A DNA stretch of 64,000 bases from Escherichia phage DT571/2, in the sequence record NC_047749.1. The stretch is one strand, 5' to 3'. The position numbers were made by a program, and so were the translations under genes. This document shows, one piece after another, positions 23,188 through 47,295 of this stretch. Positions within the stretch are counted from its first letter, which is position 1; every line of letters starts with the position of its first letter. The notes under the pieces were generated by a model. That model searched no databases, was not told where the DNA came from, and was given only the letters and a program-made list of their open reading frames with translations.

Positions 23188-23535
23188 TTAATCATATGCC
23201 CACCATAACCCACGCTTACGCATGTCATGATCGCGATTATAGTCGTAATTTTCTGGATCTTTCATCACGCGGTGGAGTTCTTGACGATTCCCTTGACGAA
23301 CCATTTTATTAGAATGCCACTTAACATTCTTACTAACAGAATTCCAGTTATAACCATCCTTTTTCTCATTACGAATGGTTGCTTCTTCCATTTCCTGTTC
23401 TACCACATCCCAGGATTTAGCATAAGTAACACGAATCCAGCAGCCACTTGCTTTGAGGAAAGTATATCCCTGGGTGTAATTAGCTTTAGACTTCCACCAC
23501 TGATCACCAGATTGTTTGCGATAAGTACGGCTCAT
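23188..23535 (-). CDS. hypothetical Trp-rich protein
   Basis: 115-aa ORF. Confidence 0.5.
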   Translation of the reverse strand: MSRTYRKQSGDQWWKSKANYTQGYTFLKASGCWIRVTYAKSWDVVEQEMEEATIRNEKKDGYNWNSVSKNVKWHSNKMVRQGNRQELHRVMKDPENYDYNRDHDMRKRGLWWAYD

Positions 23536-23656: not shown

Positions 23657-23971
23657 TCACAGATCGGGGTACTTATCTTCTAAACAGTCCGAGCTAATAT
23701 ATTCTTCGAGTCCTACAAAGCCATCAAATTCATCATTTGAAATATCCGTAATCAGTGCTTCCATTTTCCTAATTTCCGAGGTTTTCATGCCTGCTTTACT
23801 ATTCTTAAAGTATTTGCGAGGATTCCCGCACATCCAACAAGAACAGATGCAAGGAGTAGTAGCGATAATACCTAACCGCGTAGGACTTTCTTCATGAGGG
23901 AAGACTGTCCAATACTTCTTGCGGTTGTTCTTTACACGTTGCCGGTGATGACGTCTTAATGCTCGATCCAC
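23657..23971 (-). CDS. small Cys-rich (zinc-binding?) protein
   Basis: 104 aa; CICSCWMCGNPRKYF cluster. Confidence 0.5.
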   Translation of the reverse strand: MDRALRRHHRQRVKNNRKKYWTVFPHEESPTRLGIIATTPCICSCWMCGNPRKYFKNSKAGMKTSEIRKMEALITDISNDEFDGFVGLEEYISSDCLEDKYPDL

Positions 23972-24052
23972 ACATTTCTCCTAAAACTTGGGAGATAAAT
24001 GGAGTTTGCTCGACTACCTTACGTAGTTCGTAGAAACCGTATCCAAGCCCCA

Positions 24053-24421
24053 TTACATCGCCTGAGTAAATGTACGACTAATAACATCGTTCTGCTGTTC
24101 ACGCGTCAGTGCGTTAAAACGTACAGCGTACCCTGAAACACGGATAGTTAATTGAGGGTATTTTTCAGGATGTTTCTGTGCATCCAAAAGCTGATCACGA
24201 CTTAACACATTGACATTTAGGTGTTGACCCCCTTCAATTTGAGGGGCGACTTCCACCTTGACTTCACGAAAGGATTCAGAGTCAAAGTGAGGTGTGATAC
24301 CTTCTAGATCTTCAACTAGAACTTTCTGCTTAAGTTCGCCATCTTTAGAGTACAGTTGAATAATCTGATTATTATGAACAATATTAATCACGCCAGATTT
24401 AAGATTTTGGTACGCTTTCAT
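24053..24421 (-). CDS. autonomous glycyl-radical cofactor (GrcA/YfiD-like)
   Basis: 122 aa; C-terminal glycyl-radical motif RVSGYAVRF. Confidence 0.75.
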
Positions 24422-24528
24422 TAGATCTCCCCGATGTTAGAATTTGGTAGTTAGTAGTGGGTTTGAGTCGCTGTAGTCGTTCCGAGTGCCTTAGATCGCT
24501 GGGCTATCGAAGCATTAGAATATCTACA

Positions 24529-25938: not shown

Positions 25939-26033
25939 TGGAGGTAGGTAAGGGGATCGAACCCTTACACCGTATCACTACGATCAACCGATTTCAAGTC
26001 GGAGTCCAGCGCCAGCCGTTGGATTGACCTACC
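25939..26033 (-). tRNA. tRNA-Ser (anticodon UGA), class II
   Basis: hand fold: perfect acceptor and T-arm, anticodon loop CTTGAAA, long variable arm. Confidence 0.7.
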
Positions 26034-26772: not shown

Positions 26773-26836
26773 TGGTCAGTGCGGCAGGACTCGAACCTGC
26801 GACCTGAAGCATCCAAGGCTCCCACGCTACGCACTG
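26773..26836 (-). tRNA. atypical 64-nt tRNA-like element (no room for a D-arm)
   Basis: CCA, perfect 7-bp acceptor CAGTGCG/CGCACTG and perfect T-arm GCAGG/TTCGAGT/CCTGC, only 29 nt between them. Confidence 0.4.
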
Positions 26837-43370: not shown

Positions 43371-45197
43371 ATGACAGAGAATGAATTAATTGAGAATTGC
43401 AAAGGTCTGCTCACTCTAACTGCGGATAAAGACTTACAACATAATAATGCTAATAAGCCTAGTGAGATGTTCCATACTCAAAGAGACTTATTGGCCGGAG
43501 AAATCAACAAGTATCTAGTATCGCAGGAATTACCCAAACATCTATTAGACGCCCATAATCTAGGTAAGATACACATTCATGATATGGATTACAGAGCACA
43601 GGGGTACACTAACTGTTGCTTAGTAGACCTTGGTGGCATGCTGAAGAATGGTACTAAAATTGGTAATGCAAATATTGAAACTCCTAAATCCATAACTACT
43701 GCATGTGCAATCACTGCTCAGATTATTGCACAAGTATCTGGTGCTCAGTATGGTGGCACCTCTATTGATCGTATCGACGAGGTTCTAGCCCCGTATGTCA
43801 GAAAGTCTTACAATAAACATCTGGGTCGTGGTCTACGTTGGCTCAAGGATGAAAGAAAAGCTGCCGTGTACGCTACTGAGCTTACTGAAAAAGAGTGTTA
43901 TGATGCATTCCAAGCCCTAGAGTATGAAACTAATTCATTATTTAACTCTAACGGACAGACTCCTTTTGTTACGCTTGGCTTTGGGCTAGGACAGGGGTGG
44001 GAGGAAAGGATGATTCAGAAAGCCATCCTCCAAAATCGTATTAAAGGTTTAGGTGCTGCTGAGTCAACCCCTATCTTCCCTAAACTAGTATTCTCAGTTA
44101 AAGAAGGATTAAATAAAAATCCAGGCGATCCTAACTACGATATAAAACAGCTAGCACTTGAGTGTTCTGCTACCCGTATGTACCCGGACTATTTAAGTTA
44201 CGAGAAAGTTGTAGCTGTTACTGGTGATTTTAAAGCTCCTATGGGTTGTCGTAGTTTTTTATCTGCTATCCCCTCTGGAGAAATTGCAGGGCGTAATAAT
44301 TTAGGTGTAGTGTCTATCAATCTACCTATGGTTGCTGCTGAGGCAGATGGAGTTTTTGAAGATTTCTGGGATATTCTAGACAAATATGTGGATGAGGCTT
44401 TTGAAGCACATGACTTCTTCTTAAACAGACTGAAGAAAGTTAAGGCTAAACAAGCCCCTATTCTTTATATGCACGGTGGTTTTGGTGTACGTTTAGATGG
44501 GGAAGAGTATGTATGGCCTATTTTTGAAGGTAGATCCTCTGTATCTCTTGGGTATATTGGGGTCTATGAGATGTGTCAAATAATGTTTAGTTTACCACAG
44601 ACTCATAGGGACTGTATTGAATTTACAGAGGAGGTTCTCACTCACCTAAAAAATCGTTGCGAAGTTAAAGCTAATGAGACTAATCTTGGGTTTAGCTTGT
44701 ATGCAACTCCTAGTGAGTCTCTATGTAATCGCTTTAATAAACTACTGGAACGTAGGTTCCCTGAGTATTCTTGGCTAACAGATAAAGGTTATCTCACTAA
44801 TAGTCATCATTTGGACGTAAGGGAGAAGGTAGCTCCAGATACTAAATTTGAGTATGAAGCTCATTTCACCAAAATAGCTAATGGTGGTAATATATCATTT
44901 GTGGAACTACCACAAATGAAAAAGTTCCATAAAGCTCTTGAATACGTAGTAGATAAGGGACTAGAATGTAGCCATTATATTGGTGTTAATATACCGATTG
45001 ATGAGTGCTTCAACTGTGGGTATATGGGTGAATCTGTTGCCTCTGAACGTGGGTTTGTATGTCCGAGTTGTGGATCTGAAGAAATAGAGGTTACACGTAG
45101 GGTTTGCGGGTACCTGGGGTCCCCGGGCAGTAGGCCTTTCAATTCTGGGAAACAAAAAGAAGTGCTTGGTAGAGTAAAACACTTAAATCTTAAGTAA
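43371..45197 (+). CDS. nrdD: anaerobic ribonucleoside-triphosphate reductase
   Basis: 608 aa; C-terminal glycyl-radical motif RVCGYLG and zinc ribbon CFNCGY...CPSCGS. Confidence 0.9.
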   Translation: MTENELIENCKGLLTLTADKDLQHNNANKPSEMFHTQRDLLAGEINKYLVSQELPKHLLDAHNLGKIHIHDMDYRAQGYTNCCLVDLGGMLKNGTKIGNANIETPKSITTACAITAQIIAQVSGAQYGGTSIDRIDEVLAPYVRKSYNKHLGRGLRWLKDERKAAVYATELTEKECYDAFQALEYETNSLFNSNGQTPFVTLGFGLGQGWEERMIQKAILQNRIKGLGAAESTPIFPKLVFSVKEGLNKNPGDPNYDIKQLALECSATRMYPDYLSYEKVVAVTGDFKAPMGCRSFLSAIPSGEIAGRNNLGVVSINLPMVAAEADGVFEDFWDILDKYVDEAFEAHDFFLNRLKKVKAKQAPILYMHGGFGVRLDGEEYVWPIFEGRSSVSLGYIGVYEMCQIMFSLPQTHRDCIEFTEEVLTHLKNRCEVKANETNLGFSLYATPSESLCNRFNKLLERRFPEYSWLTDKGYLTNSHHLDVREKVAPDTKFEYEAHFTKIANGGNISFVELPQMKKFHKALEYVVDKGLECSHYIGVNIPIDECFNCGYMGESVASERGFVCPSCGSEEIEVTRRVCGYLGSPGSRPFNSGKQKEVLGRVKHLNLK

Positions 45198-45789: not shown

Positions 45790-46629
45790 GTGAGGAATTG
45801 TACAGTGCGTAGATTAATTATTATTAGCGGTGCAGGTTTGAGTGTTGAAAGTGGTGTACGAGCCTTCCGTACTGATACTGCTAGTGGTAAAGCATTGTGG
45901 GATGATTATGATCTAGAAGAAGTATGTAATATTCATGCCTTTCGGGGTAATTTTTACCATAAAACCCACACGTTTTACAACAAACGTCGTGAAGAGTTAG
46001 AAACTGTTGAACCCAATCTTGCACACTTGCGTATTGGTGAATGGTATAAGAAATACCCAGGTCAAGTAGTAAACTTGACTACTAACGTTGATGATCTTAT
46101 TGAGCGTGCTGGCGTTCCACATAGTGACATTCTGCACATTCATGGATACTTAAAGGAGGTTGTTGTAGCTGATAGCTACAACAGTAGTAATAAACGAATT
46201 ATTGATGTTGGGTATAACTCTATTGACCCAGATGATTATAAATGGGTTAAACCTAATGTAGTCTTCTTTGGTGAGCATGCTCCAGCGTACGCAGAAATGT
46301 ATAATATTTTTGATGGTATTACCAGTCAAGATATGATCATTATGGTTGGTTGCTCTAACCAAGTAATTAACTTCTACTGGGAATTATTCCCTGTTCTTAA
46401 TCTGACTGCTGCAAAACTTATGGTGGTTAACTACTACGATAGTGCTCTAGCGGTGGGACCAGGCTATCAAGGTATGACTCGTAGTGAGATGTACCAACTG
46501 GAAGAACGGGGTATTCCTTACTGGGGTAAAGGTGCGGTAGATGCTTTCAGTGACCCTGATTTTATTGCTCGTGTGGAAGCCCATCTAGAGGGTAGACCTT
46601 ATATGCCGGGAAAACAGATATGTCCATAG
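45790..46629 (+). CDS. Sir2-family (sirtuin-like) NAD-binding protein
   Basis: 279 aa; GAGLSVESGVRAFR, TTNVDDL, HIHGYL, VVFFGE; no zinc-ribbon Cys. Confidence 0.75.
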   Translation: MRNCTVRRLIIISGAGLSVESGVRAFRTDTASGKALWDDYDLEEVCNIHAFRGNFYHKTHTFYNKRREELETVEPNLAHLRIGEWYKKYPGQVVNLTTNVDDLIERAGVPHSDILHIHGYLKEVVVADSYNSSNKRIIDVGYNSIDPDDYKWVKPNVVFFGEHAPAYAEMYNIFDGITSQDMIIMVGCSNQVINFYWELFPVLNLTAAKLMVVNYYDSALAVGPGYQGMTRSEMYQLEERGIPYWGKGAVDAFSDPDFIARVEAHLEGRPYMPGKQICP

Positions 46630-46802
46630 TTAAATCTGTGTATACACATCCCGATGATATATTTGTATGGGCGGATGGTAGTTGGTGTTATCGATGTGAG
46701 TTATGGGAAATGGACTATAAATCCGATGACTATGGTGTCATATATGTTGATACGGTTGAGTATGATATGTTCTTAGAAAGGAACAAAAATGGAAATAAGT
46801 AA
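46620..46802 (+). CDS. hypothetical protein
   Basis: 60-aa ORF. Confidence 0.45.
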   Translation: MSIVKSVYTHPDDIFVWADGSWCYRCELWEMDYKSDDYGVIYVDTVEYDMFLERNKNGNK

Positions 46803-47295
46803 TACTCCAATTATTTTTCTAGACATTGATGGGGTGCTCAACTCGAGCATCTCCCATCACCATGCACCTGATGATGAAAAGATTTTCTTTGGAAGTGACT
46901 GGGTTTTTAAACCGCTTCTCAAGGCTTTTCAGGACTTTATTCGTCCTTCTCCAATAATGATTGTTGGGGTATCTTCATGGTTCTCTGTCAGGAATGAGGT
47001 GGAGAACGTTCAGATTATGACCAGATTAGATCTTATCGATCGTTTTCTTGGTATAACGGATTTTACTGGTGGTGGGCTATCTAGGGGTAATTCTGTTCTT
47101 CGCTTCGTCGAAAAGCATAAGCTCAAACATTGGTGTGTGCTGGATGATGCTGGTGCTATGATGTATCAGTATCCAACAGTTATAGTCAACGGTAGAACTG
47201 GAATAAATCTTCAAGACTTAAGAGCTGTTAGCTATATGTTAGAATTTAGTCCAGATCTTGAAATGTGTAAAGCCCTACAACAATTTAAGGTGTAA
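46789..47295 (+). CDS. HAD-like hydrolase
   Basis: 168 aa; motif I FLDIDGVLN, later VLDDAG. Confidence 0.6.
   Translation: MEISNTPIIFLDIDGVLNSSISHHHAPDDEKIFFGSDWVFKPLLKAFQDFIRPSPIMIVGVSSWFSVRNEVENVQIMTRLDLIDRFLGITDFTGGGLSRGNSVLRFVEKHKLKHWCVLDDAGAMMYQYPTVIVNGRTGINLQDLRAVSYMLEFSPDLEMCKALQQFKV

Follow-up and report, generated by a model that had tools for sequence, protein, structure and literature searches.

The best described relatives of the protein considered here are E. coli GrcA (YfiD) and the phage T4 protein Y06I. In the account of Wagner 2001 given in PMC8683613, these two are the only validated spare parts for pyruvate formate-lyase (PFL), and Y06I receives a radical from the PFL activating enzyme (PFL-AE), forms a complex with O2-cleaved PFL, and restores its activity. 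The structured C-terminal half of YfiD (residues 61–127) duplicates PFL residues 693–759 (PMC8683613). Its N-terminal half, which is disordered by NMR, helps binding to cleaved PFL (cPFL), and without it cPFL is bound too weakly to be measured and about four-fold less radical is formed (PMC8683613). Y06I is the protein encoded in T4 as Vs.6, and is the closest characterised relative of the T5-type protein described below. For the T5-lineage protein itself no paper was found, the literature searches returning only papers on host GrcA and citations of Wagner 2001.

The window analysed here is a stretch of 64,000 nt from Escherichia phage DT571/2 (NC_047749.1), and the coordinates of its relevant features are given in Table 1. 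An earlier note on this DNA proposed that an ORF of 122 aa encodes a GrcA-like spare glycyl-radical protein, able to rescue oxygen-damaged NrdD of the phage or PflB of the host. The ORF is real and lies on the minus strand (the strand had been omitted), within a tRNA-rich, early-gene block of the phage. It encodes a small, stand-alone protein without a catalytic barrel, and has its own Shine-Dalgarno sequence, ATG and stop codon. The stop codon overlaps the ATG of a 53 aa ORF, which implies that both are expressed as one unit. The counterpart of the 53 aa ORF in Escherichia phage DT57C is annotated as a hypothetical protein, and a Pfam match for it was not found. A scan for sigma-70 promoters and intrinsic terminators around the grcA-like gene gave none on the strand of the gene, and fewer sites than in shuffled sequence, making the scan uninformative. 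Two genes downstream, a 115 aa ORF (23188..23535, minus strand) encodes a full-length member of DUF7295 (E 4.8e-55), a conserved protein family without known function.

Table 1. Coordinates of the grcA-like gene, its parts and related features in the window.
Feature	Position (nt)	Strand	Details
grcA-like ORF	24053..24421	minus	Counterpart of DT57C_000049; 122 codons followed by a TAA stop
Shine-Dalgarno GGGGAG	24427..24432	minus	5 nt upstream of ATG; reverse complement of ctcccc; read from sequence
53 aa ORF downstream of grcA-like gene	23892..24053	minus	ATG overlaps grcA-like stop (TAATG)
N-terminal half, residues 1–60	24242..24421	minus	T5-lineage-specific; possible variant of GrcA N-terminal region
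C-terminal glycyl-radical domain, residues 61–122	24056..24241	minus	Near copy of PflB 698–759
RVSGYAVRF motif	24116..24142	minus	Residues 94–102; read from sequence
Radical glycine G97	24131..24133	minus	Within RVSGYAV
Phage NrdD, class III ribonucleotide reductase	43371..45197	plus	Pfam NRDD, E 3.2e-157; RRVCGYLG, Gly580

Assignment to the GrcA/YfiD type was upheld. The protein matches Pfam Gly_radical (E 3.4e-18), its best NCBIfam match is GrcA (TIGR04365, E 1.9e-35), and in a sequence search of the PDB the homology to GrcA/YfiD (6OWR, E 1.3e-30) spanned residues 48–122, extending beyond the radical motif. In the same search PflB was matched over residues 61–122 (E 4e-27). At the sequence level, the match to glycyl-radical proteins is far beyond chance. 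The profile for pyruvate formate-lyase itself (TIGR01255) was rejected as an assignment, as only positions 683–744 of 744 were matched, with 86 bits against a cutoff of 994.

The score against the NCBIfam GrcA equivalog profile, 121.9 bits, falls below the cutoff of 170 bits. Among the controls, E. coli GrcA scored 234 bits, T4 Y06I 151.1 and a jumbo-phage protein 137.4. Because the validated Y06I and the jumbo-phage protein also miss the cutoff, the low score reflects the divergent N-terminal halves of the phage proteins, not a different function, and the cutoff shuts out all of the phage branch, even the functionally proven Y06I. PHROG 1209 was matched at full length (E 4.6e-48; residues 1–122 on profile positions 1–121 of 121), and tblastn alignments to T4-like phages covered residues 1–122. 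The protein is best filed in the phage Vs.6/Y06I branch of the GrcA/YfiD family.

The motif RVSGYAVRF, which the earlier note had placed at the end of the ORF, is present but is followed by 20 further residues. It contains the exact heptapeptide (RVSGYAV) that works as a substrate mimic for PFL-AE and with which this enzyme has been crystallised, the peptide lying in the active site (PMC10665898). The C-terminal domain is identical to PflB (1H16/2PFL) residues 698–759 at 49 of 62 positions (79%), without gaps and with the same secondary-structure elements. It is identical to E. coli GrcA at 48/62 positions and to the jumbo-phage version, its nearest relative in this comparison, at 52/62. Across 24 phage and bacterial family members, 41 columns are invariant, including one whole stretch of 16 residues.

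An AF2 model, built from an alignment of 25 sequences (mean pLDDT 73; blocks of the C-terminal half mostly 72–84), predicts a helix at residues 75–83, a hairpin at 92–101 with G97 at its tip, and a helix at 107–117. The top PDB matches of the model by Foldseek were YfiD (6OWR, an NMR structure; TM 0.75 normalised to target) and PFL (2PFL), and among the 50 fold matches listed only YfiD and PFL reached E ≤ 0.001. The C-terminal half is thus predicted to have the fold of the YfiD/PFL radical domain. PflB differs in carrying a catalytic barrel of about 700 residues (ten-stranded, with Cys418/Cys419). Formate acetyltransferase activity of the phage protein is impossible because this barrel is absent.

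The N-terminal half is much more divergent, and the NCBIfam GrcA HMM aligns only from residue 49. By hhalign, the N-terminal halves of the T4 and jumbo-phage proteins are clearly homologous to those of bacterial GrcA (probability 97%), making them possible intermediates to the T5-type sequence. The T5-type N-terminal half matched the T4/jumbo-phage halves with a probability of 57%, over residues 33–61 only, and the bacterial halves with a probability of 13%. Pairwise BLASTP against the N-terminal half of T4 Vs.6 gave a marginal, collinear match (E 0.01), and both proteins start with MKAYQ. Profile-profile comparison detected no homology between the first ~32 residues and the GrcA N-terminal region, and by these comparisons the segment is T5-specific. 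The AF2 model predicts ordered beta strands in the N-terminal half (pLDDT ~80, in a model that is of only moderate confidence as a whole), unlike the disorder seen by NMR in YfiD. Docking of the T5-type protein to cPFL could differ from that of YfiD, since the N-terminus diverges just where the N-terminal half matters in YfiD.

E. coli GrcA (P68066; 6OWR) resembles the phage protein in size, in having a variable N-terminal half joined to a PFL-like radical domain, and in the RVSGYAV loop and C-terminal helix; it is also the best fold match. It differs in being encoded on a bacterial chromosome rather than in a viral tRNA/early-gene block, in an N-terminal half to which that of the T5-type protein bears no recognisable likeness, and in having DAV/DAI and VIARTFT where the phage protein has the phage-type signature residues DAQ and VISRTFT. 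T4 Vs.6 is likewise a stand-alone protein of ~120 aa, collinear over the full length (51–57% identity), belonging to the same PHROG and identical in the RVSGYAVRF loop and C-terminal helix. Both T4 and the T5-like phage carry nrdAB and nrdD. The N-terminal ~32 residues of the T5-type protein are undetectably related to T4 Vs.6 at the profile level, and while the C-terminal half of Vs.6 is nearly that of GrcA (59/62), the T5-type domain is equidistant from GrcA (48/62) and PflB (49/62).

T4 Vs.6 (L003, 6558..6920) itself looks mosaic. Its C-terminal 62 aa, with the 59 identities to GrcA, are of the host type, including DAV...PEQQRDVIARTFTESL, and its N-terminal half is of the phage type common to jumbo phages. 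Such a pattern would fit gene conversion, or recombination with the host grcA gene. Two protein clusters also show altered forms of GrcA. Cluster P0112 (127 aa, 900 members, longest contig 1304 bp) is an E. coli-type GrcA in which the last ~17 residues (SLTKEQQQDVITRTFTQSM) are of the PflB type, representing either a real grcA/pflB gene conversion or a chimera of short-read assembly. Cluster P0108 is a GrcA with a duplicated segment of 10 residues.

The grcA-like locus was matched by megablast in 434 phage records, and the best matches were all in Escherichia and Salmonella phages of the T5-like type, to which (Tequintavirus) the window also belongs. Among those listed, the nearest was DT57C (Tequintavirus), with 96.7% nucleotide identity. 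Its protein DT57C_000049, which carries the annotation "putative autonomous glycyl radical cofactor GrcA", shows 100% identity to the grcA-like protein of the window. Three records of T5 name the protein as a "pyruvate formate-lyase related protein", a "putative formate acetyltransferase" and a "putative acetyltransferase-related protein". By tblastn, a homologue is present in 1581 phage records, including T4-like phages (vs.6) and jumbo phages of ~350 kb, compared to a total of 2909 records for nrdD. A large protein database gave the same spread of phage homologues. The hosts of these phages, among the matches listed, are mostly Escherichia, Salmonella, Klebsiella, Shigella, Enterobacter, Aeromonas and Yersinia.

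Given the GrcA annotation in DT57C, the PFL-related names in T5 and the 1581 records, the novelty implied by the earlier note was overrated. The identification is already known from the annotation of DT57C, and the mechanism has been known through T4 Y06I since 2001. The names "pyruvate formate-lyase", "2-ketobutyrate formate-lyase" and "acetyltransferase" found in many phage records are misnomers, because the protein has only 122 aa and no barrel. Wrong enzyme names in many records, together with an NCBIfam cutoff that excludes the phage branch, give the present assignment a modest value.

The most probable function of the protein, with a probability of about 0.8, is repair of oxygen-cleaved host PflB as a spare part of the GrcA type. 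The identity to PflB 698–759 and the end-to-end alignment with T4 Y06I make host PflB a plausible client, in agreement with one half of the earlier proposal. Expression of the protein would be from the tRNA-rich, minus-strand block of phage genes. At G97, in the RVSGYAV loop, host PflA would abstract a hydrogen atom, and the C-terminal 62 residues would replace the radical domain that is lost when oxygen cleaves host PflB at G734, restoring the conversion of pyruvate and CoA to acetyl-CoA and formate. The benefit to the phage may be that fermentative ATP and the supply of formate are kept up in a micro-oxic host that, once infected by a T5-like phage, would be unable to express its own genes, and formate would also serve as the reductant needed by the NrdD of the phage. 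No activase is annotated in the 20–30 kb, 41–52 kb and 60–108 kb regions of DT57C, and among window ORFs of at least 80 aa the radical-SAM signature CxxxCxxC was absent, except in one 104 aa protein without a Pfam match. As no phage activase was found there, the radical would have to be installed by the host activase (PflA).

Other explanations can be weighed against PflB repair. One is that the ORF is a fragment of host pflB or grcA that was captured and kept without function. It does lie in a tRNA-rich block with indel plasticity, where 168 bp including two tRNA genes have been lost immediately upstream, and the enzyme names given in many records are impossible for a 122 aa protein. However, the distinct nucleotide alleles collected from T5-like IMG/VR loci plus the window (27 alleles) show a median pairwise dN/dS of 0.056 with a mean dS of 0.41, the values being 0.011 in the C-terminal half and 0.10 in the N-terminal one. 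Purifying selection, strong for the gene as a whole, acts on both halves, which excludes a pseudogene, relic or captured fragment. The start, Shine-Dalgarno sequence and stop are all intact, the locus recurs in the 434 T5-like records, and T4-like, jumbo and other phages have homologues, so that the likelihood of a captured fragment is close to nil. A functional alternative is that the protein modulates host glycyl-radical metabolism, or acts as a decoy for it, instead of repairing PflB, either by titrating host PflA or by binding intact or inactive PflB, with the result that pyruvate flux is redirected or the radical machinery freed. The T5-specific N-terminal ~32 residues, which are unlike GrcA in the region that governs PFL binding in YfiD, would fit such a role, and the title of Kammel and Sawers 2022 states that GrcA also acts on inactive full-length PflB in vivo, which suggests that the family is not restricted to the cleaved enzyme. 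A decoy would need the RVSGYAV loop only, whereas the whole C-terminal domain is nearly invariant (as the dN/dS of 0.011 indicates), and this takes in the beta strand and the terminal helix by which PFL's active site is rebuilt; moreover, Y06I, the nearest phage homologue that has been characterised, does restore activity. We consider a modulator or decoy function to be unlikely.

The other client that had been suggested was NrdD, with the protein providing a spare radical domain for the phage enzyme after oxygen cleavage at Gly580. The presence of NrdD in the phage was confirmed (Table 1), the grcA-like gene adjoins nrdD and/or nrdG in other phage lineages, and it is conceivable that other glycyl radical enzymes have spare parts too (PMC8683613). 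The two proteins share a Pfam Gly_radical match and the RV(S/C)GY loop (the radical glycine is G580 in both T4 and window NrdD). Against this, direct similarity between the grcA-like protein and the NrdD of the window is lacking (BLASTP E 7.3), and an alignment anchored at the glycine gives 5/62 identities, compared to 49/62 for PflB. In NrdD the loop follows a Zn-ribbon (CxxC...CxxC), which the grcA-like protein, having no cysteines at all, lacks, and precedes a short tail of unrelated sequence. Even the jumbo-phage proteins encoded next to nrdD stay PFL-like, with 47–50/62 identities to PflB and 8–11/62 to their own NrdD (L004, L032, L033 and L034; the PflB/GrcA comparison also included L081). 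NrdD and the grcA-like protein do not co-vary in T5-like phages, since NrdD has diverged to 60% identity while the grcA-like protein stays above 90%. No NrdD chain was found among the 34 PDB sequence hits, nor any NrdD among the 50 fold matches listed. For lack of direct similarity to the NrdD of the phage, repair of NrdD was discarded as the principal interpretation, and it is highly improbable as an alternative. Overall, the earlier reading was half right: the GrcA-like identity and the PflB client are supported, and the NrdD client is not.

Association with nrd genes nevertheless recurs in other phages. The order nrdD-grcA-nrdG is found in the Klebsiella jumbo phage fENko-Kae01 (L004, 3123..5770), where grcA and nrdG overlap by 4 nt, and the same neighbourhood is present in three IMG/VR contigs of ~350 kb (L032–L034). 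Two contigs of ~225–235 kb (L081, L084) have the order nrdD-nrdG-grcA, and in Aeromonas phage BUCT695 (L086, 3757..6234) nrdD and grcA are separated by a 9 nt gap. Within ±10 kb of the grcA-like gene, nrdD and nrdG were absent from T5-like loci (28 loci for nrdD) and from T4-like loci. The adjacency does not apply to the window, because the grcA-like gene and nrdD are 19 kb apart and on opposite strands. T4 encodes its own NrdG. In contrast, T5-like phages have no activase beside nrdD, and nrdG was not found beside the nrdD of the window.

The recurrence of this adjacency in separate phage lineages keeps alive a strong form of the link to NrdD, in which the protein donates its glycyl-radical loop to oxygen-cleaved phage NrdD or is activated by NrdG. 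We consider this very unlikely; if true, the protein would be the first spare part to serve any glycyl radical enzyme but PFL. A weaker and likelier form, which we put forward tentatively, is that the spare part keeps host PFL making the formate that phage NrdD consumes. Formate is the source of both reducing equivalents in most of the class III ribonucleotide reductases that have been characterised, and has been discussed as a cofactor of T4 NrdD (PMC4493059), to which type the NrdD of the window is related (~50% identity to T4-like NrdDs). Because PFL makes formate, the reductant of NrdD, coupling of the two pathways is the simplest reading of the adjacency, and suggests an 'anaerobic dNTP module' in the nrd-adjacent lineages, where the repair of PFL would assure NrdD of its formate. 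A statement of such PFL-formate-NrdD coupling was not found in the searchable literature. Together, the adjacency and the role of formate as NrdD reductant lead to a concrete, testable hypothesis, likewise of modest value, on dNTP synthesis by phages of facultative anaerobes in the micro-oxic gut. The NrdD of the window is context rather than a predicted client, and possibly a downstream beneficiary through formate made by PFL.

The nrdD region of T5-like phages showed features of its own. The NrdD of the window shows 100% identity to the Gostya9 phage enzyme but only ~60% to those of most other T5-like phages (e.g., Salmonella phage S147), and the identities fall into separate bands, with 49 records at or above 95% and the next ones below 80%. 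T5-like phages thus have two nrdD alleles, deeply diverged from each other, at a single genomic position, where the neighbouring genes, like the grcA-like gene, are more than 90% identical. Downstream of nrdD is an intact ORF of 279 aa (45790..46629, plus strand) of the Sir2 family (Pfam SIR2, E 1e-24), the counterpart of which in DT57C has just ~90 aa and bears the annotation of a 'defective' Sir2-like protein. The ORF that follows (46789..47295) has a HAD_SAK_2 domain (E 2.3e-20).

Just upstream of the grcA-like gene (24422..24528, minus strand), about 168 bp carrying tRNA-Met(CAU) and tRNA-Ile(GAU) are missing, as judged against DT57C and the other 24 T5-like matches listed. The remnant (~24436..24520, minus strand) resembles the 5′ part of tRNA-Ile fused to the 3′ part of tRNA-Met. 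It was called by neither ARAGORN nor Rfam, its folding was no better than that of shuffled sequence (z = 0.27), and it is probably a dead, chimeric tRNA produced by recombination between neighbouring tRNA genes. Two further matches were found on the minus strand without an ARAGORN call: a tRNA-Sec-like Rfam match at 25943..26033 that is below the gathering score (38.3 compared to 47 bits), and an Rfam tRNA match at 26776..26836 (44.6 bits). Judging by position, these probably match tRNA genes annotated for this block in DT57C, for instance its long-arm tRNA-Ser.
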